Below are positions 23,406-49,789 of a DNA stretch of 64,000 nucleotides, in pieces. Position 1 is the first letter of the stretch; every line of letters starts with the position of its first letter. The DNA comes from an uncultured bacterium. GTDB taxonomy: Bacteria; Patescibacteriota; Minisyncoccia; Phycocordibacterales; GCA-2401445. The position numbers and the translations under genes are program-made. The stretch spans positions 77,633-141,632 of the forward strand of contig CALFYW010000016.1 in assembly GCA_937952265.1 (NCBI GenBank), written 5' to 3'. The notes under the pieces were generated by a model, which was given only the letters and a program-made list of their open reading frames with translations, had not been told where the DNA came from and ran no database searches.

Positions 23406-23494
23406 CCCTTGCGTTTCCATAAACGCAAGGGTTTTTCAAAAACCAAACAAAAATCTCTTTTCGGAGATTTCGTTGGCGCGGCCGACGGGACTTG

Positions 23495-23661
23495 GTCAGG
23501 AATAAATTTTCTAACGAAAATTTTTCACGACCCTAGCTCGGTATGCTCGCCTTCTCGCTTCGCTCAAAACTCGCATATACCTCCGCTTTTCAAGTCCCGA
23601 CGCTCGTACCGAGCTTCAGTTCCGCAAAAACACCCAGGAGAACCTGGGTGTTTTTAGCAAT
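23495..23661 (-). mobile_element. About 170-bp GC-rich element abutting the 3' end of tRNA-Asp, bounded distally by a 19-nt duplicate of the tRNA 3' end at 23476-23494
   Basis: Direct repeat gcgcggccgacgggacttg at 23476-23494 and inside the tRNA at 23662-23680. Internal core GAGCGAAGCGAGAAGGCGAGC shared with the tmRNA-linked element. Confidence 0.45.
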
Positions 23662-23662
23662 G

Positions 23663-23737
23663 CGCGGCCGACGGGACTTGAACCCGCAACCTCCCGCGTG
23701 ACAGGCGGGTGCTCTAACCAAATTGAGCTACAGCCGC
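23663..23737 (-). tRNA. tRNA-Asp (anticodon GTC)
   Basis: Acceptor GCGGCTG/CGGCCGC, anticodon stem CCCGC/GCGGG, loop CTGTCAC, T-loop TTCAAGT. Terminator hairpin acacccagg..cctgggtgt downstream. Confidence 0.8.
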
Positions 23738-23785
23738 ATAGCGCTATTATACGTACCCAAAAAATAAAATCTACTTTTAATTAGG

Positions 23786-23862
23786 TGGTCCCGGGGGTCG
23801 GGATCGAACCGACGACCTTGGGCTTATGAGTCCCACGCTCTAACCAACTGAGCTACCCCGGG
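23786..23862 (-). tRNA. tRNA-Met (anticodon CAT; elongator-type, or lysidine Ile2), CCA encoded
   Basis: Acceptor CCCGGGG/CCCCGGG with a paired 1:72, anticodon loop CTCATAA, T-loop TTCGATC. Confidence 0.75.
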
Positions 23863-23948
23863 TAGAGACACGCTACACTACTATAATATACATGGGCTAA
23901 AATCTGAAGACCGTCGTTACCATTATGTAACGACGGTCTTCTCCCTTG

Positions 23949-24019
23949 TTGCGGGGCTGGGAATTGCACCCAGGCCTGGAGGTTATGAGCCTCCCGAGAT
24001 ACTACTTCTCTACCCCGCT
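23949..24019 (-). tRNA. tRNA-Met (anticodon CAT), initiator-like
   Basis: Anticodon loop CTCATAA, 1:72 A-A mismatch and A11:U24 pair in D-stem GAGA/TCTC, as in bacterial initiator tRNAs. Strong hairpin 23891-23934 downstream. Confidence 0.6.
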
Positions 24020-24077
24020 ATTAAGTCAACAGTATACCGAAAACATGCCCCTAACGCAAGAGATTTGGGTCTTAAAA

Positions 24078-26104: not shown

Positions 26105-26108
26105 ATGG

Positions 26109-28485: not shown

Positions 28486-29022
28486 CTAATACCATACCCG
28501 AATTGCACGTTCAACACGACGATTATCATCGGTATCGCAGGTATTGTATCCCCTTCCTTCAATAACCGCGCTCCCGTCTCGATGCTTCTCTACGGTTACT
28601 TTCGCGCACGGCGCGCTCGGATAGGCTCCAAAGAAAAGCCAGAAACTACTATCAACGGTGCGCGGATTACCACGACCATCCCCGCCAATCACGCTCGCTT
28701 CTGGTTCGGTTTGAGTTCCCGTATCAATGGTCTGGTTATTACATTCAATAGGAGTAACTCCATCATTTGAGAAAGGGCTCGGTACGACCTTTAAGTCGTA
28801 ATAGAGCGCGCATTCAACGCCTGTATCAGCGCCCGCAAGCGCGATTGATGATTCTCGCGCGGAGACGGAAAGCGTGTAATTTTTGATATAGATGTTTCCA
28901 ATCGCAAGACCGATAACTAAAAATAGTCCTGAAAAGATAACCGCTAATACTAATACGATCCCTTGCTCATCGCGCATGGGCTTTTCTACACCCTCTCGAG
29001 AATGATAGTGATTTTTTTTCAT
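28486..29022 (-). CDS. Pilus-associated membrane-anchored protein, minor-pilin-like without a classical prepilin motif
   Basis: Single N-terminal TM helix 'IVLVLAVIFSGLFLVIGLAIG'; last gene of the pilin block. Confidence 0.35.
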   Translation of the reverse strand: MKKNHYHSREGVEKPMRDEQGIVLVLAVIFSGLFLVIGLAIGNIYIKNYTLSVSARESSIALAGADTGVECALYYDLKVVPSPFSNDGVTPIECNNQTIDTGTQTEPEASVIGGDGRGNPRTVDSSFWLFFGAYPSAPCAKVTVEKHRDGSAVIEGRGYNTCDTDDNRRVERAIRVWY

Positions 29023-29027
29023 AGTCA

Positions 29028-29564
29028 TCAGTTTTCCCAATTATATAAAAACGCGGATGAGGAAATAGTTTTCGAGAATAAACCACGCTGCCAACTTACT
29101 ACTGATTCAACCTCGATTTCGCGACCAGGAACATGCTGAGTGATATAAATATGGCGCCTAAATATTGAAACCGGCCACGACCCTGAATATCCATATTGCC
29201 ATGTATCATCCTCATCAAGGCGCAACCAATCACACCCGCTTGAGCCACAGGTGGTAACCGTTCCTCCCAACACATTGATCTGGCAACCATTCACCCCGAA
29301 ACATCCATTAAGTCCGGTCGTCCAAGGAAGTCCTGATAGCACATTGGTATCTCGAATATTACGCACTCCTTCAAGCCCTTCTTGCGCGAGATAAACCGCC
29401 GTCGTCTGATCTCGAGATGCTTGGGCTGCAAAAAAACTCTGCGCCACTATCGAGATAGGAACCATAACCGAAACCGCGAGTATGCCGATTGAAATAAGAG
29501 CTTCAACCAGAGTAAAACCCGATTGAGAATGCATAGACGAGTATGGTGAAATAAAATTTTTCAT
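29028..29564 (-). CDS. Type IV prepilin-like minor pilin/pseudopilin
   Basis: Prepilin cleavage/methylation motif 'SGFTLVEALISIGILAV'. Confidence 0.7.
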   Translation of the reverse strand: MKNFISPYSSMHSQSGFTLVEALISIGILAVSVMVPISIVAQSFFAAQASRDQTTAVYLAQEGLEGVRNIRDTNVLSGLPWTTGLNGCFGVNGCQINVLGGTVTTCGSSGCDWLRLDEDDTWQYGYSGSWPVSIFRRHIYITQHVPGREIEVESVVSWQRGLFSKTISSSAFLYNWEN

Positions 29565-29567
29565 TGA

Positions 29568-30152
29568 TTAATTGAGGTCAAAAATACGTTGAGAGACCGT
29601 AGTCTGCACATTAATTGGTGTACGCACCCCCACCGCTTCTTCTTTGGTAAACCCGCGAATAATTAAGGTTGCTTTTGGCTGTACCGGATCCAGCGGATCA
29701 CTTCCAGAAACAAAGACATGAAATTCAGTAAGCTCTACTTCACTCCCCAATACATCCTGAAAAGCCCCTCCGGCACCCACTTGTTTTTGAAGCTGAGTCC
29801 CTCCGCTGACTCGATAGGATATGCGTGTTCGCGCCCCGCTATACGGATCTTCTTGTGAGGTAAACGAAATTCCTGGAAACGGTGTAGTTGCGCAATCTTG
29901 TGTTTCTTCCATTACCGAATAACCACAATAATATGTAGTGCCAAGCCGTATTTCTCGTGCCATGCTTTCAAGCGCAAAACTCACGTTATTAACCACCGTA
30001 CTTACTGCCCGTGCTTGCTTATTGGCATCAATGAGCGAGAGGAGCGCGCCCAAGCCAACCGCAAGAAACATCATAAAAATTCCTATTGAAACAATGAGCT
30101 CAATCAGTGTAAATCCACGCATCTGATGTTTTTTGGAATGTGGTGTCCTCAT
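29568..30152 (-). CDS. Type IV prepilin-like minor pilin/pseudopilin
   Basis: 'MRGFTLIELIVSIGIFMMF'; start trimmed to remove a 120-nt overlap. Confidence 0.65.
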   Translation of the reverse strand: MRTPHSKKHQMRGFTLIELIVSIGIFMMFLAVGLGALLSLIDANKQARAVSTVVNNVSFALESMAREIRLGTTYYCGYSVMEETQDCATTPFPGISFTSQEDPYSGARTRISYRVSGGTQLQKQVGAGGAFQDVLGSEVELTEFHVFVSGSDPLDPVQPKATLIIRGFTKEEAVGVRTPINVQTTVSQRIFDLN

Positions 30153-30156
30153 AATA

Positions 30157-30780
30157 CTACTGTACTGATACTTGCCCTGTTGAAGCAACTCGAATGGTCC
30201 GAGATCTTCCCTGCGGAGAAGTAAGCGTGATAAATCCATAATCATACAAGGCTGGCTGATGGCTTTTAATAAGAGCACTCGGACTTGGTCGTTTATATAT
30301 AATATTTAACTCATCGATCGTTGGACCTCCTGCATCAGTACTACATATTGTTTCCGCGCAAAATTCATCAACCGCAAAACCTTGAGGAAGGGAGAAATAC
30401 GCGACACATTCTGGCGAAGACGCGCACCCTGATTCAGATTCACTTCCATCATACCGCCCATCATTATCAATATCCGCAAAAAAGATATACCCTCGATTAT
30501 TACCACCGCTCGTAAAAAAATGGATACCGTAGGCAGCGGAAAAATTTGCACTTCCACCTAAACCAAGCTGTCGAACACTCGAACCCGAGACTTGCGCCTC
30601 GCGAATCTGAAGCGCCATGGTATAGGTAAGATTCGAAAGCCGAATGGAGTCTCCAAATTCAGTATGATTAAAGAGTGCGATCCCCGTCACTAAACCCACG
30701 ATGCCAAAAGAGATTAATAACTCTACCAGCGTAAATCCCTTTTTAGAAGAAGCGGGTAGTCGCGGAAATGTAAACAGCAT
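30157..30780 (-). CDS. Type IV prepilin-like minor pilin/pseudopilin
   Basis: 'KKGFTLVELLISFGIVGLV'. Confidence 0.7.
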   Translation of the reverse strand: MLFTFPRLPASSKKGFTLVELLISFGIVGLVTGIALFNHTEFGDSIRLSNLTYTMALQIREAQVSGSSVRQLGLGGSANFSAAYGIHFFTSGGNNRGYIFFADIDNDGRYDGSESESGCASSPECVAYFSLPQGFAVDEFCAETICSTDAGGPTIDELNIIYKRPSPSALIKSHQPALYDYGFITLTSPQGRSRTIRVASTGQVSVQ

Positions 30781-30787
30781 ACACCTA

Positions 30788-31651
30788 TTATAAAGCTAAA
30801 AGCTTCGAGAGACCAACCACATCCCACTCAAAAAGATAGACGAGGATGGTGCTGATAATTAAAAATGGAGCAAATGGTACTTCGCTTTTCATGGTAATAA
30901 GAAAACGGTGTGTACTGCTTTTACGAGTAAATCGCGAAATAAATAAAAGCATCACTGCCACTACCGCTCCCGACCAAAACGCAAGTATCAGTGCTGAAAA
31001 TCCAAGCACTCCCCCAAGAAACCACCCCATACCCCATGCAAATTTTGCATCGCCAAAGCCGATCCACCGACCGCGCGAGATAATCCACAAAAGTGCGAAA
31101 GGTGCAAATAGAAGCGGGCCAGACCACAGTGCTCCCCAAGAGAAGACACTCCATGAAAACAGTGTATTGCCTGACATAAACAGAGAGATAAAGCTCAGCA
31201 CAATAAAGGTGAAGACAAATCCATCGGGAATAATTTTATGCCGGATATCATACACCCCAATAACCACAAGGATTGAAAAAATAACCAAAACGAGGCCAAT
31301 CTCAGCCCATACAGTAAGTGCAAAATCAAATTTCCACAATACCGCTAAAAACAAAACACCGCTCATAAGCTCAACCAGAGGATACTGCCATGAAATAGGA
31401 GTCTGGCATCCTCGGCACCGGCCACGTTGTAAGAAAAAACTCAATATCGGTACAAGCTCAAACCATTGAAGTCGTTTTCCGCACGAGAGACAACCAGAAT
31501 AAGAATTCACCACACCTCGACCCGTGTTATAACGCAAAATAACCACATTTAAAAAACTGCCGACAAAGCTTCCGATAAGAAAAAACACCATGCCAAGAAA
31601 GAAGATCATACTGTTAGTATAGCCTAATCCCTCCGCGAAACATACACACAA
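30788..31651 (-). CDS. pilD: Prepilin peptidase (A24 family)
   Basis: N-terminal Zn-binding CxxC..CxxC (CLSCGKRL...CRGCQTP); multi-TM; 'GFGDAKF' catalytic-Asp region. Confidence 0.85.
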   Translation of the reverse strand: MCVCFAEGLGYTNSMIFFLGMVFFLIGSFVGSFLNVVILRYNTGRGVVNSYSGCLSCGKRLQWFELVPILSFFLQRGRCRGCQTPISWQYPLVELMSGVLFLAVLWKFDFALTVWAEIGLVLVIFSILVVIGVYDIRHKIIPDGFVFTFIVLSFISLFMSGNTLFSWSVFSWGALWSGPLLFAPFALLWIISRGRWIGFGDAKFAWGMGWFLGGVLGFSALILAFWSGAVVAVMLLFISRFTRKSSTHRFLITMKSEVPFAPFLIISTILVYLFEWDVVGLSKLLAL

Positions 31652-31703
31652 AAACCCCGCTACGCGGGGTTCGTGCTCTTAGCTTCCTTCAAGAGAGGCT
31701 AAA

Positions 31704-32066
31704 CTATGAGGTTGCGCATCCTGTTGGCGTACAAGTAACCGTGGTACTGTCTCCAGTAACTGGAACTGAGAATGCATTGACCGTTCCGGTAATGGTTCCG
31801 TAAGACCAACCTGTTGGTAATGTAGGATACACCGCGCTACTGCTTGCACAGACTGCAGTGCTACCTGGTGTTACCGTGGTATTTAGCGCTTCACCATCAT
31901 CTGAACAAAGAATTAATGCTGGGAGCAATGCACTCATCGTTCCTTGTGCTGCTGCAATACGAGCACGAGTACGTGCGCTGTTTAGACTCGCGAGCACAAC
32001 TGATGAGAGGATACCAATGATCGCAATAACGACCAAGAGCTCAATAAGGGTAAAACCTTTTTTCAT
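31704..32066 (-). CDS. pilA: Type IVa major pilin
   Basis: 'MKKGFTLIELLVVIAIIGILSSV' class III signal; Thr/Ser-rich C-terminus with Cys pair. Own terminator and promoter region upstream. Confidence 0.85.
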   Translation of the reverse strand: MKKGFTLIELLVVIAIIGILSSVVLASLNSARTRARIAAAQGTMSALLPALILCSDDGEALNTTVTPGSTAVCASSSAVYPTLPTGWSYGTITGTVNAFSVPVTGDSTTVTCTPTGCATS

Positions 32067-32232
32067 AAATAATTAACTTATAAAATTAATAAACAAAAAA
32101 TTAACGACCGCTCTCTTAATCTTTCGAAGAGAGCTTCTTTGCTTCTCTTCTACTCCCTTATTATACACCTATTTCGAAAACCGCAAATTCCCCTGTGGAT
32201 AAGCCATTTCAAGGCGTACCGTTGAAAAAGAT

Positions 32233-33438
32233 TTAAAATGTTGATGACAGGTTGTAAATCGGCACCAATACCGAAACGAGGAGGGTCAATACCCCTAAAC
32301 CAAGAAGTACGATCATGGCAGGCTCAATCAAGCCTACGAGCGTATCAACAGCGTTTTCGACTTCACGCCGATAAAACCGCGCGAGAGTGCTTAAAATATT
32401 TCCCATTTCGCCCGACTCTTCACCAACCGCAAGCATCTGTGTCATGATCCCTGGTATTTCTTCGTATCGCCCGAGTGCTGAAGAAACCGATGTTCCTGAT
32501 TTAATGGCGTCAATTGATTCAGCAATAATACCTTCATATACTTTATTCCCTACCACGGTGCCGGTAATTTCAAGGGATTTCACCACCGAAATACCGCTCC
32601 CGAGCATCGTACTCATATTGTCAGAAATACGCGAGAGATAAAGCTTCGTATACAGATCGCCAACGTAAGGAACTGCCAATTTAAACCGATCAAAAACCGC
32701 GCTCCCTTCTTTGCTATGAAGATACCGAAACAGAAAAAATCCACCCAAAATAACTCCTGCTAATAGCAAGATCCCGTAATTTACCAACGCATCACTGATT
32801 CCAATGACAATTTTGGTATAAAAAGGGATTTCTTGGCCAGAATCAGTTAAGATTGCGGTAATACTCGGCACAATTGAGGTGAACATAAAAATCATTACCG
32901 CGAAAAATACAAGGATAACAAACAGTGGATACACCATTGCATTGCGAGCTTTAGAGACCAGTGCGTAGGTACGATCAAGGTAATCAGCAAGATAACGGAA
33001 TGTTTTATCAAGTTGCCCTGATTCTTCACCAGCACGTACCATGTTTACGTAAATTGGAGAAAATATTTTGGGATGTTTTGCAAGCGCGCTATAAATAGAA
33101 CTGCCTCCCTGTAAATCACTTGCAATTTTAACCAAGGTACGCGCCAAAAGTTTATTCTCCACCTCACCAGCAAGCATGCGAAATACTTTGAGCGCTGATA
33201 CTTGTGCCTCAAACAGTGTTGAGATTTGCTGAGAGAGAATAACGACATCTTTTGTCTTTACCCGATCAAAAATATGGATCTCTTTATCTAAGAGTGCTTT
33301 TGACTCAGCAGAACTAATCGCGGAAAGTATCAAATTTCGCCGTTGAAGCGAACGGATTGCAACATCCTCGCTAATCGCCTCGATATTTCCGCGCACACGC
33401 TCGCCGTGTGCGTCAATGGCTTCGTAGGTAAATAACAT
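32233..33438 (-). CDS. pilC: Type IV pilus platform protein PilC (GspF family)
   Basis: 401 aa with duplicated GspF domain architecture. Terminator hairpin gctctctt..aagagagc downstream. Confidence 0.85.
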   Translation of the reverse strand: MLFTYEAIDAHGERVRGNIEAISEDVAIRSLQRRNLILSAISSAESKALLDKEIHIFDRVKTKDVVILSQQISTLFEAQVSALKVFRMLAGEVENKLLARTLVKIASDLQGGSSIYSALAKHPKIFSPIYVNMVRAGEESGQLDKTFRYLADYLDRTYALVSKARNAMVYPLFVILVFFAVMIFMFTSIVPSITAILTDSGQEIPFYTKIVIGISDALVNYGILLLAGVILGGFFLFRYLHSKEGSAVFDRFKLAVPYVGDLYTKLYLSRISDNMSTMLGSGISVVKSLEITGTVVGNKVYEGIIAESIDAIKSGTSVSSALGRYEEIPGIMTQMLAVGEESGEMGNILSTLARFYRREVENAVDTLVGLIEPAMIVLLGLGVLTLLVSVLVPIYNLSSTF

Positions 33439-33445
33439 ACTACTG

Positions 33446-34516
33446 TTAAATAAGCTTCATCAAAATTTCTGGATTCATTGAAAAAGCGCGGGCATGTTCA
33501 ACCGTGATTTCTCCGGCTCGAACCAGCTCTGCTAACGAACGATTCATGTCGATCATGCCGTTTTCAGTGCCGGTTTCAATAACTGAATGAATCTCATGGG
33601 TGCGCTCTTCACGAATCAAATTAGATACTGCAGTTGTATTAATAAGGAGCTCATAAGCAGGCACCAACCCACCTGAAATACGCGGGATGAGCCGTTGTGA
33701 GAAAATGCCCGAGAGGCTTGCGGCAAGTTGCGCGCGAATTTGTGACTGCTGATCTCCCGGGAACGAATCAATAATACGGCTAATCGTTTGGGCCGCGTTA
33801 TTGGTATGAAGTGTTGAAAATACTAAATGGCCCGTTTCCGCGGCAGTTACTGCGGTTGAGATGGTTTCGACGTCACGCATTTCTCCAACAAGTAATACGT
33901 CGATATCCTGCCGAAATACCGAGGTAAGCGCCGTGTGAAAGCCTTCGGTGTCAACGCCAACCTCTCGTTGGCTAATGACTGATTTTTTTTGCTCATATAC
34001 ATACTCAATCGGATCTTCAATGGTCATAATATGCTCTGCCCGTGTTGCATTGATCATTTCAATAAGCGCGGCAAGCGTTGTTGTCTTTCCGTGCCCAACA
34101 GGCCCAACCACCAAGAAAAACCCTTGCTGGCGATACGCAAACTGCTCAAGAGATGCCGGAAGGCTTAATTCTTTAAGTGACCGAATCCGATGAGAGATAA
34201 AACGAAGCGCAATACCTGGGCTTTCTTGTTGAAAATAGGCATTCCCTCGAAAACGGGCTTCCTTTTTAAAACTGTAGGAGAAATCAAGTTCTTGTGTTTT
34301 GAGAAAACGCTCTTTATACGCCGGAGAGACCATCATTCCGAGAAAATTCAAGATATCTTCTTTTGAAAGCGGTGTATGCTTCACTAAAGGAATGAGAAAT
34401 CCAGATACTCGAATGATTGGGGGTCTCCCCTCTAAAAAATGGAGGTCTGACGCGTTTTCATTAACCACAATGGTGATGAGACGCTCAAGTTCTTTTTCGT
34501 AATTTCTATTCGACAT
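33446..34516 (-). CDS. pilT: Type IV pilus retraction ATPase PilT
   Basis: Walker A 'GPVGHGKTTTLAAL', 356 aa, Asp/His boxes. Confidence 0.85.
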   Translation of the reverse strand: MSNRNYEKELERLITIVVNENASDLHFLEGRPPIIRVSGFLIPLVKHTPLSKEDILNFLGMMVSPAYKERFLKTQELDFSYSFKKEARFRGNAYFQQESPGIALRFISHRIRSLKELSLPASLEQFAYRQQGFFLVVGPVGHGKTTTLAALIEMINATRAEHIMTIEDPIEYVYEQKKSVISQREVGVDTEGFHTALTSVFRQDIDVLLVGEMRDVETISTAVTAAETGHLVFSTLHTNNAAQTISRIIDSFPGDQQSQIRAQLAASLSGIFSQRLIPRISGGLVPAYELLINTTAVSNLIREERTHEIHSVIETGTENGMIDMNRSLAELVRAGEITVEHARAFSMNPEILMKLI

Positions 34517-34542
34517 AGAGTTCCTAAGTTTCTAAAAATCCC

Positions 34543-34938
34543 CTATCCCTTCTTCGAGAGAATCTCGACAACCTTTTCATAAATTTCAGATGGAACTACG
34601 TTTGCTTTAATGATAAATCCATCAGCACCCGCTTTCATTGCTTCCTCAACTTGTTCATTCTGGCTTTGATTTGAAAGCATAATCACCACTGATTCAGGGG
34701 CCAGTTTTTCATCCTTAACTCGACGCACAAAATCAATACCGTTAATGGTAGGCATCACAATATCGGAGAGAATCACTTGTGGTTTAAGGCCGTCTTTGAG
34801 TTTAGTAAGCGCATCAGTAGTTGAAGGCGAGGTAATGACTTCAAAGCCATGCTCCTTAAATTTCATGGCATACATATCAATTAAAAACGTATCATCATCA
34901 ATAATGAGAATACTCTTTTTTTGCGTTTGTTCGTCCAT
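34543..34938 (-). CDS. CheY-like response regulator embedded in the pilus locus
   Basis: 'ILIIDDDTF', 'ILSDIVMPTINGIDF', 'VIMLSNQ'. Confidence 0.8.
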   Translation of the reverse strand: MDEQTQKKSILIIDDDTFLIDMYAMKFKEHGFEVITSPSTTDALTKLKDGLKPQVILSDIVMPTINGIDFVRRVKDEKLAPESVVIMLSNQSQNEQVEEAMKAGADGFIIKANVVPSEIYEKVVEILSKKG

Positions 34939-34959
34939 ACTACTCCTACTATAACATAC

Positions 34960-36693: not shown

Positions 36694-36723
36694 AGGAAAT
36701 AAAAAAAGAAAGCTCTTGCTTCG

Positions 36724-37026
36724 CTAAAACGGTGAGAATGGATCCTGCTTTCCAACAGATTGCGGAATGATTTGTTGACTGAAATCAACGAGACTTCCAA
36801 GCATTCCGCTCTCAAAAATACTTCGATCAAGTGAAATACCTTCCGCCTTTCGCACCAGGATCACAATTTTTCGATCAGGAGGAATTTCAAGTGCTCCGGC
36901 ATTCTGCACAATTGATGAAGAAGTGTCATCTTCCCCCTTCCCCGAGAACCAGAAATAGACAAGCGCGAGCATTCCTACCACAACCAAAATAGTAATTAAA
37001 TTTTTATATTTTTGAAATATACCCAT
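36724..37026 (-). CDS. Small membrane-anchored pilus-associated protein (PilP-position)
   Basis: N-terminal TM helix; location between pilO and pilB. Confidence 0.35.
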   Translation of the reverse strand: MGIFQKYKNLITILVVVGMLALVYFWFSGKGEDDTSSSIVQNAGALEIPPDRKIVILVRKAEGISLDRSIFESGMLGSLVDFSQQIIPQSVGKQDPFSPF

Positions 37027-37028
37027 AG

Positions 37029-37676
37029 TTATTGAATCGAATGTTCATCAAACCAATACCGATCAAATACAATTGAATACCCATAACTTCCGGTACTTAA
37101 TTCAAGTTCGCTATTCTCTGCTGATGCGTCGGTTTGTACAGAAATGCTTTGAATATCGACAAGGGCCAAGCTTCGCTCAAGATCTCGCAAAAATCCATTA
37201 AAGAACCGGTAGGGCCCTGACACGGAAAAAGAAACACGGAGTCGCTTTACTGGATCATTGATTAACGCAATTTCCTCTGCAGTGAGCTCTGACTCAGCTT
37301 GGGAGGCTGATCCTGCTTCTGTAATTTCAGATTGGGATGCTTCTTCAGCAACACCAATTCTTTCAAAATCAAGATCCTGCATGATCATGCTGTGCCGAGC
37401 CGCAATCGTATTAATATCCGCAAGAAACCGAAACTCATCGATCTCATCTGGAAGCAAGGTGGCAAGATATTCCAAATCATCATCACTAAATGATGCGAGG
37501 GATGTCTCCAAACGAATTCGCTCTTCCTGAAGCTTATTTAATTGAGTAAATGCTTCTTGGTATTCCACCTCTCGCATCTGAAGCGCCTCGATTTTTTCAA
37601 AAAATAATGGGCGCGTATAGAAATACGCTAGTGCGCCGGATAAAAGAAGGATAATGATTGGTATGGTAATTCTCAT
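37029..37676 (-). CDS. pilO: PilO-like pilus assembly protein
   Basis: N-terminal TM followed by coiled-coil 'LNKLQEERIRLETSLAS'; gene order pilM-N-O. Confidence 0.6.
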   Translation of the reverse strand: MRITIPIIILLLSGALAYFYTRPLFFEKIEALQMREVEYQEAFTQLNKLQEERIRLETSLASFSDDDLEYLATLLPDEIDEFRFLADINTIAARHSMIMQDLDFERIGVAEEASQSEITEAGSASQAESELTAEEIALINDPVKRLRVSFSVSGPYRFFNGFLRDLERSLALVDIQSISVQTDASAENSELELSTGSYGYSIVFDRYWFDEHSIQ

Positions 37677-37684
37677 AATGCTCC

Positions 37685-38329
37685 TTAAAATGAATTTTCA
37701 ACTTCTTCATCTTCTGCCACATCCAGATCTTCAGCTTCAGCAAAGAGACTCGCGTAACGAATGAGAGAAGGGTCAACTGAGGCACTGACTCCAAAGACCA
37801 CATTCCCGGATTCGTCTAAACTTATCTCCCCAAAATCAGTTTCCGTAAGGTACGCGTTAGCTCTTAATTCATCTGCCTGAAGCGCTAAAGATTCAAAGTT
37901 CGGTGCAATTCCCGAGAAAGTCATACTATACGATCCGGTACCTCCAAATTGAAATTCAGTTAAATATACTGAGCGAAGCGTATTAGCCTCAAGCAACGCA
38001 AACACCTCAGATGCGGCAACATGATTAGTGAGTATCTCAATGACTCGTTGAAGCCGCACATCGAACGCGCCAACCGTGTCAAAAAAATCACGATCAATAT
38101 TCTTTTCTGCTTCAGCAAATTCCATCTTGAGCTCATCAATACGAAGCGAGAGATGCCGTTCATAGAAAAACAGTACCCCAGTGCCAAGAAGCACCACTAA
38201 TGCAACCGTGATTGAAAGAATGAAAAAGATATTCGCTGAATTCCGACGACTAAAACCACCACCCCGACCATGCGAAGCAAGCGGTCGTTTCGGAATAAAC
38301 GATGAACGTTGAAGTGCATTAGGATCCAT
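37685..38329 (-). CDS. pilN: PilN-like pilus assembly protein
   Basis: Short cytoplasmic N-terminus, single TM, periplasmic domain; directly downstream of pilM. Confidence 0.6.
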   Translation of the reverse strand: MDPNALQRSSFIPKRPLASHGRGGGFSRRNSANIFFILSITVALVVLLGTGVLFFYERHLSLRIDELKMEFAEAEKNIDRDFFDTVGAFDVRLQRVIEILTNHVAASEVFALLEANTLRSVYLTEFQFGGTGSYSMTFSGIAPNFESLALQADELRANAYLTETDFGEISLDESGNVVFGVSASVDPSLIRYASLFAEAEDLDVAEDEEVENSF

Positions 38330-38404
38330 GATTATTCACAAATAGAGAACATGTTTATTATACCGTAACCCTCTATACCTGCCTTGTGTATAAGGGGATA
38401 AATA

Positions 38405-39517
38405 CTAACGCCGGAGCTCTTGTAATTGTCGGAGTGCGATGCCCAATGAGACCGCAAATTCAGGGCCAGCATTCTGAAGCACGCCACGGACAAATGCAGG
38501 AGCGGTTACTTTTGAAAACGGATCCGCAATTGAAATCTGCGTATGAAGAATCTCTTTCCCAAACCCCATAATTCCCTTAAGTGCTGAGCCTCCTCCAATC
38601 AATACCGCGCGCTCAATCGGCTTTTTATTTTCTGCTTCATACGCTCTTCTAATCCGCTCGGCTTCATTGAAAATATAGTGGAGTGTCGTACTTACTACTT
38701 CGCGCATACTTGCAGTGGTCTCTCCTTTATGTATTCCAAATTCACGTTTTAATTCTTCAGCGCGCTCAAGATTAACGCCAAGCGACTGAGAAATAGCGGT
38801 CGTAATATCCTGCCCTCCGCGATTAACGATATGCGAGCTTCGTACTACCCCCTGCTCTACAATATAAATTTTACTTGTCGCTGCCCCGAGATCCATAACC
38901 ATTAAGGGATTGATGCTCTCCGTAAGAGTCGCGCGCACCGCACTAAAGATTTCAATCTCAAGAAAGCGAGAAGTTAAACCTGATTCAGTAATTAACGTTC
39001 GATACTCTTCGATGGTTTCGTTATGAATTGCAACAATTAAAACATCGACTTTATGCTCAATCACTCGCTTCTCCTCATCGGTGTAATCTCGAGACTCAAT
39101 AGTGTCTCGTGGCACGATCCACCAATCAAACACCACCTCAGAGATAGGAACGGGGATATATTTTCTTGCTTCAATGGGAACCATGCGCGCCAACTCTTTT
39201 TCGTCTAATTCCGGCATCTTAATCAACGAAACTAAACTTGAAGAAAATGGAATTGCAAAACCAGCATCTTGGCTCGTAACTCGCGCTTCACGGATAATAG
39301 TCATGAGCGCCTCTATGCGTTTTTCAGTTGGCAAATCAGTTGCCTTTCCCACCGGAAGATTAGCAAAGGGGCCTAGCGCAAGGGATCCGTATGTTTCAAG
39401 CACTGCTTTACCCCCTTGATCCCGCAACTGAACCACTTTGACTGAGGATGAACCAAAATCAACACCAATCACACTGGTATCATTACCACCAAACATCTTT
39501 TTGAAGAAACCTGCCAT
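38405..39517 (-). CDS. pilM: Type IV pilus assembly protein PilM (actin-like ATPase)
   Basis: 'VIGVDFGSSSVKVVQL' phosphate-1 motif, FtsA/actin fold. Start at internal ATG (MAGFFKK). Confidence 0.85.
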   Translation of the reverse strand: MAGFFKKMFGGNDTSVIGVDFGSSSVKVVQLRDQGGKAVLETYGSLALGPFANLPVGKATDLPTEKRIEALMTIIREARVTSQDAGFAIPFSSSLVSLIKMPELDEKELARMVPIEARKYIPVPISEVVFDWWIVPRDTIESRDYTDEEKRVIEHKVDVLIVAIHNETIEEYRTLITESGLTSRFLEIEIFSAVRATLTESINPLMVMDLGAATSKIYIVEQGVVRSSHIVNRGGQDITTAISQSLGVNLERAEELKREFGIHKGETTASMREVVSTTLHYIFNEAERIRRAYEAENKKPIERAVLIGGGSALKGIMGFGKEILHTQISIADPFSKVTAPAFVRGVLQNAGPEFAVSLGIALRQLQELRR

Positions 39518-39553
39518 AGCGTTACGATAAAGTATAACACAACCGCTATAACG

Positions 39554-40231
39554 ATGGCGTCTATCGCTATGCACAAGATTCAAACTATATTGCAAAACTT
39601 ATACGCATTCTTATTCCCCGGATCCGCGGACATTCGCGCGCTCGAACAGATGAGTACCGCGCAACTGCTCTCTGCTCTCAAACCAAATAATAAACCAGAG
39701 ATCCACCCCGCGATTCAAGCACTATTCGCATATCGAGATCCGTTAGTTCGGCGTGCGATTCGAGAAATTAAATATCGCGGCAATCCAAAACTCATTGCCC
39801 TTTTTGGAAGCATACTGTACGACTTTATACTTGAAGAATACGGAGACACGGGGGCGCTTCCACACAAAGAACGCTTATTGCTTATTCCAATCCCCAATTC
39901 ACGAAAACGGAGGCGAAAACGAGGATTTAATCAAACTGAATTATTGGCACAAGCGCTTATACAACACGATACTCAGAAAAATCTTGTTCTCTTAACCAAA
40001 GCGCTCGTAAAGATACGGGATACAAAAAGCCAGACCGAACTCCCTGATCGAAAATCACGAGAAAGAAACGTCTATCGCGCGTTCTCAGTACCAAAACCTA
40101 AAAAAATAATAGGGCGAACGATTCTTCTGCTTGATGACACTGCCACAACAGGAAGTACGCTTCTTGAGGCACGCCGTGTTCTGCTTGAAGCAGGAGCGCG
40201 AAATGTTTTTTGTTTGGCACTTGCCCACTAA
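39554..40231 (+). CDS. comF: ComF family phosphoribosyltransferase-domain protein
   Basis: PRTase motif 'ILLLDDTATTGSTLLEA' at the C-terminus; divergent from pilM. Confidence 0.75.
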   Translation: MASIAMHKIQTILQNLYAFLFPGSADIRALEQMSTAQLLSALKPNNKPEIHPAIQALFAYRDPLVRRAIREIKYRGNPKLIALFGSILYDFILEEYGDTGALPHKERLLLIPIPNSRKRRRKRGFNQTELLAQALIQHDTQKNLVLLTKALVKIRDTKSQTELPDRKSRERNVYRAFSVPKPKKIIGRTILLLDDTATTGSTLLEARRVLLEAGARNVFCLALAH

Positions 40232-46272: not shown

Positions 46273-46274
46273 AG

Positions 46275-46346
46275 TGCGCGTGGAGGGATTCGAACCCCCA
46301 ACAACCCGCGTATAAGGCGGACACTCTACCATTGAGTTACACGCGC
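46275..46346 (-). tRNA. tRNA-Ile (anticodon TAT)
   Basis: Acceptor GCGCGTG/CACGCGC, D-stem ACTC/GAGT, anticodon stem TCCGC/GCGGG with loop CTTATAC, T-stem GGGGG/CCCTC. Confidence 0.65.
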
Positions 46347-46422
46347 AAATCTAGAGACATACTACCCCAAAAATCAATCCGAGGTAAGATGTTTAGAAAT
46401 TCTAGTATGCACCCTTCTTATT

Positions 46423-48345
46423 TTACTCCTGGTGCTCAATATCTTTTTTCTGTTTGGGCATGATGCCGTGCGTGATAAGGAGCTTTTCATATTCATCACG
46501 CTCAATGGTTTCCTTTTCAATGAGATAGTTCGCGATCGCATCAAGCGCTTTGCGGTGTGTAGTGATAATTTCTTCTGCTTTTCCGACCGCTTCAGTGATA
46601 ATGAGTGAGACCTCAGCGTCAATTTCCGCGCTTACGCGCTCTGAATATTCTTTACTATCAACACCACGGCCGAAGAGCACCCCTCCCGAAGCTCCTTCAA
46701 GCGCCACTGGGCCCATCTTCTCCGACATACCATATTTGGTTACCATATCACGCGCAAGGGCGGTCGCGACTTGCAAATCATTTGAGGGGCCCGTAGTAAG
46801 ATCATTAAAAATTTTCTGCTCTGTTACATACCCTCCGAGCGACATGGCAATATCGTCCAAAAATTCATTACGTGATTGTAGTTTTCGATCTTCTAAAGGA
46901 AGTTTGAGCGTGTACCCTGCCGCACGACCTCGAGAAATAACAGAGATCTTATGCACCGGATCAGCGTATGGCAAGACTGACGCAACAAGCGCATGCCCAG
47001 CTTCATGGTATGCGGTGATTTCTTTCTCCCGCTTAGAGAGTAGGTGGCTCTTTCGTTCAGGGCCAAGCATTACTTTTTCAATTGATCGGATCAGGTCAAA
47101 CTGGGAAATTTTTTGTCTATTTTCTCGAGCTGCAAGAATGGCGCCTTCATTCATCAAGGAATAAAGATCCGCACCAGAGAAACCGGGTGTTCGTTCCGCA
47201 AGAATGCGCGGATTCACATCTTCGGCCATGGGTTTTTTTCGGGAATGAATACGCAAGATCTCTTCTCGGTCATTGCGATCTGGAAGATCAATCGTAACTC
47301 GACGATCAAATCGGCCGGGACGAAGCAGTGCCGGATCAAGTACATCAGGCCGATTCGTTGCCGCCATGACAATCACTTTTTCATTAGGCTCAAACCCATC
47401 CATTTCTACTAAAATCTGGTTTAAGGTTTGTTCACGCTCATCATTTCCTCCGCCAACCCCAGTTCCTCGCACGCGCCCTACCGCATCAATTTCATCCACA
47501 AAAATAATTGCGGGGGCTGCCTGCTTTGCCATCTTAAAGAGATCACGTACCCGTGACGCTCCCACACCCACAAACATTTCCACAAATTCAGAACCTGAGA
47601 TAGAGAAAAATGGCACTCCAGCTTCACCCGCAACAGCCCGCGCAAGCAATGTCTTTCCCGTACCAGGCGCCCCCATGAGAATGACTCCTTTTGGGATACG
47701 CGCTCCAATTTCTAAAAACTTCTTCGGATTCTTAAGAAAATCGACAATTTCGAGCAATTCTTCCTTTGCTTCTTTTACTCCCGCTACATCTTTAAATGTT
47801 ACGCGCTGATTCTTATTATGCGGATCGATAATACGAGCCTTAGACTGACCAAAGGAGAATGCCTGCATTCCTGCGCCTTTCACTTGCCGTGAAATAAACC
47901 AAAAGAAAAAGATTATGAAAATAATAGGAATTAAAATTGGCGCGAGATTCAAGAACCAGTATCCAAGCCCGCTTGGACGCTTAAACTCAATCGTGAGACT
48001 CGCGAGTCCATCAGCAGGAACTCCGTAGTTTGCAAGTGTTTCAATGAGCGAAGCCCCTGCCTCTTTTTTCGATTCCTTCTCGCTACCATCCTTATACGTA
48101 ACCACAAGATCGTCTCCAGAGACAACCACCCCTTCAACCATTGAAGCTCGAATATCAGCCGCTACGGTTGAAAGCGGGACCACCTCCTGATTTGAAGTAT
48201 CTGCTATTGCGGAATAGAGCGTAACAATAATGAGGAGCGTGAGGAGGATACCAAAAAAATTTCCGAAAATTCCCCCGCTCTTTTTAGGAAAATTCTTTTT
48301 TCCGCGCGCATGCTTTTTTTCATCTTTTTTATGACGAGAAACCAT
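46423..48345 (-). CDS. ftsH: ATP-dependent zinc metalloprotease FtsH
   Basis: AAA Walker A '[19 protein letters not shown]', SRH, Zn site 'HEAGHAL'. Start at internal ATG (MVSRHKK). Confidence 0.9.
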
Positions 48346-48704
48346 GATATTGCAATAGTATAGTCGAAACATGATACCAAAAAGAAAATACCGCGTCAAG
48401 AATGACGCGGTATGGTTTCTCAAAAAATACTTCAATCAAACAGTGCTCCGCACCTAAGGCACATATTTCCTTCAAATTCCCGATTCCCCGGGTAATAAAG
48501 GCTTTGAACTGAAGTGCTGTGGCAACGAGGACACCGTTTTCGAAAAAGAAGAAAGATGAACAAGCCTATTGCGAGACCGGCCATCACTACGGAAAGGAAG
48601 ATAGATATCATAAAACCTCCAGTAATAGAATGGGTAATTCCGAATTCTAGGATGAACTATATCCCAGAGTTCACAAAATGGTCAATACTCGCTAGTATTG
48701 AGAC

Positions 48705-49151
48705 ATGGAAATACTGGTAACCCACAAAAAAGCACGTTTTAACTTTGAAATCGGAGAGACCTTCGATGCGGGAATCGAGCTGATTGGACATGAGGTAAAA
48801 GCGCTCCGCGCACATCAGGGCTCTCTTGAGGGAGCGCACGTAAGCGTGCGTGGTAATGAAGCATATATTATTGGTATGCACATTCCGGCTTTTCAGCCCG
48901 CTAACACACCAGATACGTATGATCCTGATCGTAATCGACGCTTGCTCTTAAATAAAAAAGAGATCGCCACACTTTCGGGTAGTGAACGCACTAAGGGATT
49001 GACAATTGTCCCGATTATGGTGTACAATAGTAAGCGATTCATTAAGGTTCGTTTGGGTATCGGCCGTGGAAAAAAACAATACGACAAACGCGAAACGATA
49101 AAAAAGCGTGATACCAAACGAGACATCGAACGAACATTAAAAAATGAATAA
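48705..49151 (+). CDS. smpB: SsrA-binding protein
   Basis: 'KKARFNFEIGETFDAGIELIGHEVKALR', C-terminal basic tail. Confidence 0.9.
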   Translation: MEILVTHKKARFNFEIGETFDAGIELIGHEVKALRAHQGSLEGAHVSVRGNEAYIIGMHIPAFQPANTPDTYDPDRNRRLLLNKKEIATLSGSERTKGLTIVPIMVYNSKRFIKVRLGIGRGKKQYDKRETIKKRDTKRDIERTLKNE

Positions 49152-49152
49152 C

Positions 49153-49548
49153 GGGGATGATTGGCCTCGACAAGAGTCTGCATATAATGGTGCACGCCGA
49201 GTTCCAGATACTCGTTAAACAGTCTGGAAATAAGAACTGCAAACACTGTAGCTTCTAAAGTAAAATCATTTGTTTCTCCGTATTTTACGGCGAACGATTT
49301 TGCTTTCGCTTACGCAAAAGCCTAAGCGACATCGTCTTACTCTCCTCCTAAAGGGAGTAAACACGGTGTAATCACTTTTAGGATAGCCATATAAGCGCCT
49401 ACTTATATGGCGAACACTAAGGATCGGAATATGAACATCTTGTCTTTTTCTTAGTTCATATCCTTAAAACCTTCGAAAAAGACTAAACGTTGTAGATATC
49501 TTTATATGTTTCTTTTGCACCCGGGTTCGATTCCCGGCATCTCCACAA
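49153..49548 (+). ncRNA. ssrA: tmRNA (SsrA)
   Basis: Begins 2 nt after the smpB stop. 5' GGGGATGATTGGCCTCGAC tRNA-like start. Tag reading frame GCG AAC GAT TTT GCT TTC GCT TAC GCA AAA GCC TAA (ANDFAFAYAKA). 3' T-arm GGGTTCGATTCCCGG and acceptor CATCTCC-A pairing with the 5' GGGGATG. Confidence 0.8.
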
Positions 49549-49549
49549 A

Positions 49550-49739
49550 TACAAAACACTCTGCCATTTATGGTGGAGTGTTTTGTGTTTGCTGGTATAT
49601 GAGGAGGAAGCGTAGCTTCCGGCGGGAATCGAAAGGCGGAGCGTTGTCGAGCGAAGCGAGACCGCGAGCCGGGGTCGAGAGCACTTAGCATTTTGTTACG
49701 TAGCATGCTACGTAACAAAATGGTTAGTGACTCGTGACC
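49550..49739 (+). mobile_element. About 190-bp GC-rich element inserted at the tmRNA 3' end, bounded by a 20-nt duplicate of the tmRNA 3' end at 49740-49759
   Basis: attcccggcatctccacaaa occurs at 49530-49549 (tmRNA 3' end) and again at 49740-49759. Internal terminator hairpin 49551-49590, core GAGCGAAGCGAGACCGCGAGCC, and a perfect 30-nt palindrome at 49691-49720. Confidence 0.5.
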
Positions 49740-49789
49740 ATTCCCGGCATCTCCACAAACACAGTGCATACCCAAAATATTGGAGTATG

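Follow-up and report, generated by a model that had tools for sequence, protein, structure and literature searches.

Structured, gene-less units bounded by copies of tRNA and tmRNA 3' ends: candidate site-specific mini-cassettes in Paceibacterota

Introduction

In a 64-kb stretch of DNA from an uncultured bacterium (contig CALFYW010000016.1; hereafter the window), the tRNA-Asp gene and the tmRNA gene are each followed by a short insert and then by a second copy of the gene's own 3' end. What are these inserts, and how did they come to lie there? Elements that target tRNA and tmRNA genes leave partial tRNAs behind and form tandem arrays (10.1101/2020.12.28.424599), and decayed elements that retain attL and attR accrete in tandem (PMC5704250). 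The original prediction offered three readings of the two inserts: miniature non-autonomous elements, deletion scars of larger islands, or a tRNA-targeting small RNA family. We examined the inserts and their relatives and weigh these readings, together with two others, below.

Results

Duplicated gene ends bracket two small inserts

At tRNA-Asp, the 19-nt gene end GCGCGGCCGACGGGACTTG has exactly two copies in the window (23476-23494 and 23662-23680), with a chance expectation of 0 even when 3 mismatches are allowed. The 20-nt tmRNA end ATTCCCGGCATCTCCACAAA likewise has exactly two (49530-49549 and 49740-49759; 0.01 expected), and this exact repeat grows to 24 nt with 1 mismatch (96%). The exact, window-unique duplicates therefore stand as originally described, as att-like copies of RNA gene 3' ends with about zero expected by chance. 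They bracket non-coding inserts of ~170-210 bp. The tmRNA insert recurs identically in the independent assembly L093 (SRR7515932), up to the contig end inside the second hairpin, which excludes an assembly artefact for that insert. The parts of the two loci, each in the direction of its target gene, are as follows.

tRNA-Asp locus
23662-23737, minus: target gene, tRNA-Asp(gtc), whose final 19 nt (23662-23680) serve as the proximal repeat copy
23626-23655, minus: terminator-type hairpin opening the unit (inverted repeat with 13-nt arms, 100% complementary; fold)
23602-23614, minus: small hairpin H1 (gctcg-gta-cgagc; sequence, folds)
23589-23602, minus: anti-T segment, the T-loop and the 3' strand of the T-stem in inverted orientation (14 nt, complementary to 23669-23682 at 93%)
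23544-23586, minus: mid hairpin (GCGGAGG ... GCGAGCA), holding the core 23545-23565
23495-23541, minus: shortened H2 hairpin (model R1 match 23486-23541, 25.7 bits, E about 1e-3)
23476-23494, minus: distal direct copy of the tRNA-Asp 3' end (sequence; exact repeat)
23441-23460, minus: ordinary terminator-like hairpin just past the distal copy (sequence; fold)

tmRNA locus
49153-49548, plus: tmRNA gene, the target (Rfam RF00023, 138 bits, full length); T-loop TTCGATT at 49526-49532
49530-49553, plus: proximal site, the genuine tmRNA 3' end and first direct-repeat copy (20 nt exact, 24 nt at 96%)
49546-49591, plus: terminator-type hairpin opening the unit, arms 49546-49567 and 49570-49591 (22-nt arms, 86% complementary; fold)
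49606-49620, plus: small hairpin H1 (ggaagc-gta-gcttcc), splitting the inverted copy (sequence; folds)
49623-49633, plus: anti-T segment CGGGAATCGAA, the T-loop and the 3' strand of the T-stem in inverted orientation (11 nt, complementary to 49526-49536 at 100%)
49635-49670, plus: mid hairpin with conserved base GGCGGAGC/GCGAGCC and tip GCGAAGC, holding the originally noted core (49649-49669)
49671-49739, plus: H2 hairpin, whose tip is perfectly palindromic and whose TTAG/TTAG internal loop is conserved (inverted repeat; covariation)
49740-49763, plus: distal direct copy of the tmRNA 3' end, beginning within the T-loop (repeat search)

The window's tmRNA was not detected by ARAGORN and was found by Rfam RF00023. 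Each insert opens with a hairpin preceded by an A-run and followed by a T-run; a simple terminator scanner called neither, because the T-run sits within the extended stem. CCA follows the tRNA-Asp distal copy and CAT the gene copy. The hairpin at 23441-23460 is a candidate for the displaced native tRNA-Asp terminator, and the same layout, a terminator-like hairpin beyond the distal copy, is seen at L028, L065-Pro, L125, L126 and L127.

The inserts share a two-hairpin body and an inverted copy of their target

The shared core GAGCGAAGCGAGANNGCGAGC has one copy in each insert, 23545-23565 (minus) and 49649-49669 (plus), and none elsewhere in the window; the chance expectation is 0 with as many as 3 mismatches allowed. 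This core is merely the compact form of a conserved hairpin that a second hairpin follows, a feature that the original prediction had overlooked along with the inverted copies and palindromes described below. A covariance model was trained on ten units, among them the tmRNA unit but not the tRNA-Asp unit. It recovers the latter at the score listed above, and its only other match in the 64 kb is the tmRNA unit itself, a training-set member, at 49664-49747 with 72 bits. Homology of the two inserts thus extends past the core. The mid-hairpin base motif GGCGGAGC/GCGAGCC also occurs in units at other tRNAs, and covarying hairpins stand at the H1 position in L006-E2, L027, L028, L065 and L125. Covariation is pronounced in H2: 93% of cells are paired as against 68% in shuffles (0/500 reach 93%) and 40-52% in slid controls, with 15 of 20 pairs changed on both sides. 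The tRNA-sense strand folds better in 11/12 bodies (G·T pairs, 20 vs 10). Modularity is apparent at L027, where the Arg and Gly units have nearly identical H2 hairpins despite differing left halves.

The T-loop and 3' T-stem of the target gene also recur in inverted form within each window insert, and this inverted copy differs with the target (TTCAAGT for tRNA-Asp, TTCGATT for tmRNA). In contiguous-type units the match to the target is 19/19 to 24/24. The inverted copies complement the genomic trailer ACAA and not CCA, and were therefore copied from DNA, not from mature tRNA. Together with the terminator, the inverted copy and the genuine tRNA end make palindromes that are close to perfect, their arms reaching about 42 bp at most. 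In 9/12 units the distal copy begins at position 56, and a pseudo-T-arm dyad, GGGA-CGAWT-TCCC, is retained at many unit junctions. At L027-Arg the inverted copy agrees with the genuine tRNA at 24/24 positions, whereas 3 of 19 positions mismatch in the distal copy of that unit. Other distal copies hold 3-, 6- and 29-nt insertions, and the L049-Gly copy is truncated.

One family at seven targets, with strain-variable arrays

The same architecture lies behind tRNA-Gly(gcc), Gly(tcc), Arg(tcg), Glu(ctc) and Pro(tgg), besides Asp and tmRNA. The further copies make up one family of miniature, non-autonomous elements, as the original prediction had proposed: at least a dozen units of about 170-260 bp at seven different tRNA/tmRNA targets in at least six genomes of Paceibacterota (CPR), always oriented as their tRNA. 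L126-Pro is a minimal form without the body. Group 2 relatives hold the same core within a closing stem that lacks tRNA sequence, and hairpin elements tipped with GCGAAGC are abundant in these genomes away from tRNA ends.

Units often stand in tandem arrays, and near-identical strains differ in unit content. L006 reads tRNA-B-A-B' and L065 reads tRNA-A-B, between flanks that are about 98% identical (counted from the alignment). Every distal copy in these two arrays has a 6-nt insertion that is absent from the tRNA, which argues that the distal copy is carried by the unit. Homologous recombination between repeats could be an alternative source of this strain difference. Decayed second units are found at L027 and L049. 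Turnover is not fast everywhere, as the RIFOXYC2 population has the same units in all six contigs analysed (of ten).

A search for empty sites, the polymorphism that the original prediction had looked to, found insert-free ends at six other tRNAs of the window (Thr twice, three called Met/CAT, Ser and Ile) and at the tmRNA genes of the relatives L095 and L106. For the window's own two units there is no clean orthologous empty site, because the SmpB of the nearest relative is only 70% identical.

No unit contains an ORF, in agreement with the view that the inserts are too small to encode a protein. No recombinase gene turned up in the window (50 ORFs) or next to the L006 and L049 arrays. We saw no promoter within the window units, no larger version of a unit (viral contig scans included) and no excised or circular form. 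Neither Rfam nor literature searches returned a match, and the family is apparently undescribed.

Discussion

Our best explanation, to which we give a probability of about 0.5, is that the units are non-autonomous, gene-less, structured cassettes that integrate site-specifically at tRNA/tmRNA 3' ends in Paceibacterota. Read on the tRNA-sense strand, such a cassette consists of (i), a replacement terminator hairpin; (ii), the last 11-24 nt of the target in inverted orientation, a copy that always ends at the T-loop's 5' boundary (position 53/54) and is either contiguous or split by H1 at the junction of acceptor part and T-part; (iii), a hairpin whose base GGCGGAGC/GCGAGCC is conserved and whose tip is usually GCGAAGC; (iv), a further covarying hairpin, in which the internal loop is CTTAG/CTTAG; and (v), GAC followed by the direct target-end copy from T-loop position C56. 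A recombinase acting in trans, most plausibly of the tyrosine type, would cross over within the shared segment from T-loop to 3' end. The cassette would then supply the tRNA's working 3' end and terminator, the native end and native terminator being pushed to the far side; this displacement is suggested by the ordinary terminator that usually follows distal copies and by the CCA after that of tRNA-Asp. Repeated integration events would stack cassettes into arrays. The substrate may be a folded single strand, of attC- or CTXφ-like topology, because the order site, hairpin, inverted site, cargo, site matches that of CTXφ/Xer and of integron attC; by this analogy, pairing of direct and inverted copies suggests an attachment site presented as a hairpin.

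Several observations sit uneasily with site-specific cassettes. No recombinase is linked to the units in the ORFs and array flanks searched, an ordinary double-stranded att site needs no inverted copy, and so small a DNA circle (about 200 bp) would strongly resist bending. The mismatch pattern of L027-Arg fits poorly with a functional hairpin made of the inverted copy and the distal copy of the same unit, and suggests that the palindrome involving the genuine tRNA end is instead subject to selection or gene conversion. Finally, conserved, covarying GC-rich hairpins in an AT-rich genome look equally like an RNA gene. The units could accordingly be tRNA-linked structured RNA genes, expressed by read-through from the tRNA/tmRNA promoter, whose inverted and distal direct copies pair as a mimic of the acceptor/T-stem, so that RNase P, RNase Z and the CCA-adding enzyme release a stable small RNA that comprises mid hairpin and H2, with arrays arising by local duplication. 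We consider this doubtful, but it is a serious rival, or a complementary account, as it is compatible with mobility (a mobile RNA-gene cassette). The strand that folds is the tRNA-sense strand, the orientation is always that of the tRNA, the tRNA-Asp distal copy ends in CCA, and Group 2 relatives, with their core in a closing stem devoid of tRNA sequence, look like a free-standing RNA gene. Split-type units also run acceptor 5' strand, H1, T-stem 5' strand, body, T-stem 3' strand, acceptor 3' strand, an order that copies tRNA topology. In tRNA-like modules of non-coding RNAs, such as bacterial Y RNA YrlA and tRNA-linked processing signals, an acceptor/T-stem-like closing helix could in the same way recruit tRNA-processing enzymes and define the RNA ends. 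However, YrlA-type mimics have generic tRNA shapes and are not verbatim copies of the last 20 nt of an adjacent tRNA, nor are they arrayed or variable between strains; a mimic needs no position beside the tRNA that it copies. Moreover, between every unit and its tRNA lies a strong hairpin of the terminator type, internal promoters and Rfam matches are lacking, and the closing stem is not kept in several units (the 3 mismatches of L027-Arg, the truncated copy of L049-Gly, the 3-, 6- and 29-nt insertions elsewhere). The recurring tip GCGAAGC is itself exceptionally stable as DNA and not as RNA.

The remaining explanations each account for part of the architecture. Snap-back or template switching at a terminator palindrome, extending it over the tRNA end, would yield the inverted copy as a by-product, the rest of the unit being an unrelated small palindromic (REP/MITE-like) element that favours such sites, with no dedicated site-specific recombination. 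The long palindromes, the DNA-templated complement to ACAA and the abundance of GCGAAGC-tipped hairpins unlinked to tRNA ends are in line with this idea, which we nevertheless hold to be improbable: it leaves unexplained the distal direct copy, its fixed C56 start, the 53/54 end point that inverted copies share whatever the target, the split-type copies with their conserved H1 and the constant module order. Scars of larger integrase-bearing islands, alike after interior deletion through a shared parental element end, would have att-like repeats and no genes, and L126-Pro, lacking the body, has such a look; degenerate remnants and partial tRNAs are indeed common at tRNA integration hotspots (10.1101/2020.12.28.424599). 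Random decay is not supported as the source, however, because the two-hairpin body, with its compensatory stem changes, would not survive decay at seven different targets, and a dozen or more units from at least six genomes have one size class and the same module order, no larger version was found, and the target-specific inverted copies are left unexplained. The scar reading of the original prediction is thus unlikely, and we rate it a little below snap-back. Least probable is that the units are RNA-guided, with the inverted copy as a guide that steers a trans-encoded recombinase to the tRNA end in the manner of bridge RNA or seekRNA. A complementary segment does track the target within a conserved structured scaffold, but it is continuous over 11-24 nt and not two short guide pairs in internal loops, bridge-type insertion yields no 19-24-nt flanking repeats, a promoter is absent, and no DEDD or other recombinase gene was found in or near the units (window ORFs, L006/L049 arrays).

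Viewed as site-specific cassettes, the units resemble several known systems. Tycheposon-type tyrosine-integrase islands also target the 3' part of tRNA/tmRNA genes and leave the gene intact between full and partial copies of its end; later arrivals push earlier ones outward into tandem arrays, remnants accumulate and occupancy varies between strains (10.1101/2020.12.28.424599). These islands, however, span kilobases, encode their own integrase and use attachment sites of roughly 40 nt (10.1101/2020.12.28.424599), whereas the units are geneless, 170-260 bp long and have a conserved two-hairpin body and an inverted target copy, which together with the tRNA end makes up a long palindrome. CIMEs, the cis-mobilizable, decayed ICEs/IMEs that keep attL and attR, are likewise non-autonomous, bounded by att-type sites, devoid of integration genes, accreted in tandem at tRNA ends and dependent on a recombinase in trans (PMC5704250). 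They are decay products of identifiable parents without a conserved structure of their own (PMC5704250); the units have no known parent, and their conserved, covarying interior points to selected design and not to decay. Integron cassettes share with the units their arrays, an imperfect end palindrome (attC) conserved more in structure than in sequence, preferential folding of one strand and the lack of self-mobility (PMC4792948). The units differ in having no intI beside the arrays, no GTTRRRY/RYYYAAC core, a structured non-coding cargo in place of ORFs and an inter-unit repeat of 19-26 nt, not 7 nt (PMC4792948); the 'attI' would here be the tRNA end. Similar in layout is CTXφ, whose folded single-stranded attP is used by host Xer: it has no recombinase of its own, and its predicted order of chromosomal site, spacer hairpin, inverted arm, cargo and second site is that of the units, although its target is dif and not a tRNA and it is a 7-kb phage with genes (PMC3442271). 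For the units, a single-stranded form and a role for Xer are hypothetical.

Results

Two RNA genes in the window are each followed by a gene-less structured cassette, hereafter a unit, at whose far side the 3' end of the RNA gene is repeated:

23662-23737, minus strand, tRNA-Asp(gtc), target of one unit
49153-49548, plus strand, tmRNA, full-length and directly after smpB (Rfam score 138 bits), target of the other unit

A second copy of the final 19 nt of tRNA-Asp lies 186 bp downstream, and one of the final 20 nt of tmRNA lies 210 bp downstream (24 nt if one mismatch is accepted). Each repeat has two occurrences in the 64 kb, even with 3 mismatches permitted, about 0 being expected by chance, and within the window the 21-nt core that the inserts share (23545-23565, minus; 49649-49669, plus) is confined to these two. 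Given that the repeats are unique, that the core is found only in the two inserts, and that an independent assembly (contig L093) carries an identical tmRNA insert as far as the contig end, the original prediction of exact 3'-end duplicates with a nearly identical core between them stands. In the window as at other loci, the direct repeats correspond to the 3' part of the target and the gene is intact, as in integrative elements. The tmRNA gene, whose 3' terminus is ...CTCCACAAA with no encoded CCA, was missed by ARAGORN despite its full-length Rfam score; ARAGORN also called a tRNA-Ile with the rare anticodon TAT (UAU) at 46274-46346 on the minus strand.

Read along the tRNA-sense strand, the units measure 170-260 bp and follow a common plan. 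After the tRNA end comes a terminator-type hairpin between an A-run and a T-run, then an inverted copy of the tRNA end, then a mid hairpin with a conserved base, GGCGGAGC/GCGAGCC, and a tip that is usually GCGAAGC, a very stable DNA mini-hairpin. The core described in the original prediction is merely the shortest version of this mid hairpin, which in other units is enlarged by 20-85 nt; a K-turn at its base was set aside because the bulge would have 1 nt in place of 3. A second hairpin, H2, follows, with an unpaired T/T conserved within CTTAG/CTTAG, and the unit closes with GAC and the direct, distal copy of the tRNA end. This copy starts at T-loop position 56 in 9 of 12 units, the junctions reading GAC|CGAWT, and a pseudo-T-arm dyad is retained at many of them. 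An ordinary terminator usually lies 3' of the distal copy, and the distal copy of tRNA-Asp is directly followed by CCA.

The inverted copies had escaped the original prediction. Each window insert carries one, matching the T-loop and T-stem 3' strand of its own target and located at the same place relative to the core: cgtcgggacttgaa in the tRNA-Asp unit (14 nt, 93%) and cgggaatcgaa in the tmRNA unit (11 nt, 100%). The sequence varies with the target, the T-loop being TTCAAGT in one window unit and TTCGATT in the other. Across the family, inverted copies span the last 11-24 nt of the tRNA, including 2-3 nt of genomic trailer, and end constantly at T-loop position 53/54. They are either contiguous (19/19 to 24/24 matching) or interrupted, precisely where acceptor part and T part meet, by a small covarying hairpin termed H1; insertions of 3, 6 and 29 nt in distal copies sit at this same T-stem/acceptor junction. 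In the tRNA-Arg unit of locus L027 the inverted copy matches the genuine tRNA at 24/24 positions, whereas 3 of 19 positions are mismatched in the distal copy of that unit. In the tRNA-Gly(gcc) unit of locus L049 a perfect palindrome with ~42-bp arms runs from the genuine end across the terminator to the inverted copy, the distal copy being truncated. From these two cases, the inverted copy apparently tracks the proximal, genuine end, through selection or gene conversion within the palindrome. Inverted copies are complementary to the genomic trailer ACAA and not to CCA, showing that they were copied from DNA and not from mature tRNA; together with their extension through position A58, this removes a primer-binding-site model of tRNA-primed reverse transcription.

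In an alignment of ten units, 93% of H2 cells are paired compared to 68% in shuffles (0/500 of which reach 93%), falling to 40-52% when the partner columns are slid, and 15 of 20 pairs have changed on both sides. A covariance model of H2 and the junction (R1) recovered the tRNA-Asp unit, which was not among its training units, at 25.7 bits; its hits included neither a third copy in the window nor any additional unit in the SmpB loci. For 11 of the 12 unit bodies the tRNA-sense strand gives the stabler fold of the two, and it has 20 G·T pairs versus 10 on its complement. Fold z-scores are -6.2 for the tmRNA unit and -2.2 for the tRNA-Asp unit. In the predicted folds of the window units, the inverted segments would pair with the distal copy, leaving H1 as a side branch. 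The site-hairpin-inverted-copy sequences of the units form long palindromes. Contig L093 ends (3960-4014) inside the perfectly palindromic tip of H2 of its tmRNA unit, so unit palindromes probably break short-read assemblies.

A scan of 185,579 genomes, one per species, with the core pattern returned 46 loci, mostly chance matches in GC-rich genomes; only those from CPR bacteria are real, and the low-GC matches all come from CPR/Patescibacteria. Group 1 lies directly 3' of tRNA genes and has the same architecture as the window units:

Campbellbacteria GW2011_OD1_34_28 (locus L006), unit behind tRNA-Gly(gcc)
Campbellbacteria RIFOXYC2_FULL_35_25 (loci L027 and L028), units behind tRNA-Gly(tcc) and tRNA-Glu(ctc)

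Testing every available tRNA for downstream direct and inverted copies of its own end revealed units without the exact core behind tRNA-Arg(tcg), tRNA-Pro(tgg) and tRNA-Gly(gcc), and further ones at tRNA-Pro and tRNA-Gly(tcc) came from more distant genomes, reached via a neighbouring MscS gene. The same architecture is therefore present at other tRNAs in CPR genomes, confirming that copies exist beyond the two inserts. In group 2 (Saccharibacteria, Jorgensenbacteria and Colwellbacteria; loci L011, L015, L017, L019, L030), the same core sits in a long hairpin whose closing stem has no tRNA link, and no tRNA is nearby, save one between two L030 copies. This hairpin is ~200 nt long, with an outer inverted repeat of 17-26 bp and an inner hairpin with the conserved loop CGCTGGGG; the two L030 copies are inverted and flank a tRNA-Ala at 4633-4706. 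By-eye inspection of L017 found no tRNA-end copy.

A two-block pattern scan of metagenomes returned the same lineages, plus locus L065. Three viral-contig scans were either empty (two) or gave chance matches only (one), meaning that no phage-borne or larger version is present in those contigs; nor did the genome, metagenome and viral scans contain a larger relative of the units. In Rfam 15, only the tRNAs and the tmRNA of the window reach the gathering threshold, permissive scans of the units gave only hairpin-type (miRNA-type) noise, and literature searches found no matching family. To judge from Rfam and the literature that could be searched, the family is previously unreported.

Several features point to turnover of the units. 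L006 has three tandem units (types B, A and B') behind tRNA-Gly(gcc), and L065, a close relative (flanks ~98% identical by our own count), has A then B, a presence/absence polymorphism in which both number and order differ. All distal copies of these two arrays share a 6-nt insertion that is absent from the tRNA, implying that the distal copy moves with the unit and is not recopied from the tRNA at each event; a true target-site duplication was rejected for this reason. Second units are decayed or truncated in L027, L049 and the L027 tRNA-Arg locus. H2 is almost identical in the tRNA-Arg and tRNA-Gly units of L027 and their left halves differ, which indicates that modules recombine. tRNA-Pro adjoins the same MscS gene in each genome, and its unit state differs from genome to genome:

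L125 and L127, split-type unit
L115/L049, contiguous-type unit in inverted orientation
L126, minimal form reduced to an inverted copy of 13 nt and a direct copy of 11 nt, with 6 nt between them

Relative to the flanking UPF0102/MscS genes, tRNA-Pro with its unit is flipped in L115 (2326-2399) versus L125 (1786-1859), which come from related genomes and differ by a local inversion of the tRNA-plus-unit segment. The RIFOXYC2 strain contigs analysed, from one population, have identical units and no polymorphism. Empty sites do exist: six other tRNAs of the window and the tmRNA genes of two distant relatives (L095 and L106) are without a unit. No close relative of the window organism was found by way of SmpB, that of the nearest one being only 70% identical; distant relatives reached in this way have plain terminators or unrelated small hairpin elements after tmRNA.

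At 170-260 bp and without any plausible ORF, the units are indeed too small to encode an integrase, as originally predicted. No recombinase or transposase domain was detected in 60 ORFs (50 in the window and 10 beside the L006/L049 arrays), and no integrase was found beside the arrays. Both window units are neighboured by housekeeping genes (release factor, two response regulators, histidine kinase, GatA-type amidase, IF3, L20). No promoter was found within the units; the perfect sigma-70 promoter at 49790-49817 belongs to the gene downstream of the tmRNA unit. Just beside the tRNA-Asp unit ends a 163-aa ORF with no Pfam match (22914-23405, plus), a candidate gene that overlaps the start of the opposite-strand histidine-kinase gene (21681-22979). 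A 229-aa ORF, likewise lacking a Pfam match, comes immediately after the three-unit array of L006 (4573-5262, minus) in a ~900-bp indel, where L065 has unrelated sequence. The window also contains a type IV pilus cluster (29000-39600) with prepilin peptidase, N-methylation-motif pilins, PilM and T2SSE/T2SSF-type ATPase and platform proteins; its only bearing on the units is that such pili probably import DNA in CPR bacteria.

Other palindromes were also observed. In contigs L097/L099 (2445-3150, after smpB), the interval from smpB to tmRNA contains a 125-nt hairpin with GAAGCGAAGC at its tip, and the tmRNA is followed by a small element with GCGAAGC-containing hairpins and a 16-nt flanking direct repeat, gactatatttttgtag; both resemble further small palindromic elements of Parcubacteria. 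A GC-rich mini-palindrome, cctgcctgccggcaggcagg, interrupts the distal copy in the tRNA-Pro unit of L127 (~800-830) and recurs inside the mid hairpin of unit 3 of L006 (~5500-5530, minus), suggesting a still smaller mobile hairpin.

Discussion

The finding is real and of more interest than first described: a family of miniature structured cassettes is tied to tRNA and tmRNA ends in CPR bacteria. These cassettes are best read as integrative elements with an unusual, target-mimicking design, non-autonomous given that they contain no gene. Site-specific integration into the tRNA end would fit the fixed T-loop junction, the pseudo-T-arm dyad, the terminator after the distal copy, the CCA at tRNA-Asp, the tandem accretion and the strain differences. 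The element would bring a new tRNA 3' end and terminator, displacing the native ones. The original prediction had also considered deletion scars of larger islands, which we consider unlikely: random scars would leave the conserved design at seven targets unexplained, the body covaries, and the scans returned no larger relative. Snap-back extension of the terminator palindrome could produce the inverted copy, leaving the distal copy and the fixed boundaries unaccounted for. A bridge-RNA-type guide would call for an enzyme, a promoter and a loop architecture, none of which is found in the units.

Alternatively, the units might be structured RNA genes linked to tRNAs, with an acceptor-like closing stem that attracts tRNA-processing enzymes. 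This would explain the conserved structure and orientation and may well coexist with mobility, but it leaves the terminator in between, the decay of closing stems and the position next to a tRNA unexplained. Within the integrative reading, the integrated form could be a folded single strand, which we infer because its integration should yield the succession of site, hairpin, inverted site, cargo and site that the units show; the tRNA-sense strand bias and the recurring GCGAAGC tip fit this picture. In its boldest form, which we consider unlikely at roughly one chance in five, the units would be integron- or CTXφ-like cassettes docking at tRNA/tmRNA 3' ends: a single strand of ~200 nt would fold with its direct and inverted copies recreating a double-stranded tRNA end, to be spliced in by a host recombinase, and the cargo would be a structured nucleic acid instead of a gene. 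The smallest bacterial genomes would then harbour a new class of hairpin elements that move and mimic their target, possibly mobile RNA genes that mimic tRNA.

CPR/Patescibacteria have genomes of ~0.7-1 Mb with few recognised mobile elements. If the reading is correct, gene-less cassettes at many tRNA ends that rewrite the 3' end and terminator and turn over between strains would be a new form of CPR genome plasticity and, were a compact recombinase responsible, might lead to a programmable system for integration at tRNA ends. Through its target-matched inverted copy, each unit has a readable specificity code built in that names the site it occupies, making the mechanism directly testable (hairpin attachment site versus guide versus tRNA mimic). 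The partial tRNA-like sequences that units generate are also a concern for annotation.

Several known systems share part of this design. Like CIMEs, to which the original prediction compared them, the units keep attL/attR-type repeats and have no integration or transfer genes; unlike CIMEs, which decay from an identifiable ICE or IME, they have no such parent in our scans and possess a conserved, covarying body with a target-matched inverted copy. MITEs have family-specific terminal inverted repeats and a short target-site duplication, whereas the only terminal inverted repeat of the units is the target-derived pair of inverted and distal copies, different for each tRNA, and their flanking repeat is 19-26 nt of tRNA sequence. 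IS110/IS1111 bridge-RNA/seekRNA elements encode a DEDD recombinase and have two guide-bearing internal loops; in the gene-less units the complementary segment is continuous. Casposons combine a Cas1 integrase, terminal inverted repeats and a fresh target-site duplication, in contrast to gene-less units whose array distal copies carry the unit-specific 6-nt insertion. Integrase islands encode their own integrase and the units do not; the proposed integration is like that of tRNA-end elements, which replace the 3' end and terminator and displace the native ones. IMEX/CTXφ elements use host Xer at dif through a folded single-stranded attP (PMC3442271), and the units match them in product topology only, the target being a tRNA end. 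Integron attC sites have GTTRRRY/RYYYAAC core sites and an adjacent intI-attI, compared to GAC|CGAWT junctions with no integrase beside the arrays. However, attC is also a structurally conserved one-strand fold that bounds array units and is integrated as a folded single strand (PMC4792948), a property that the long predicted palindromes and the strand bias of the units may parallel.
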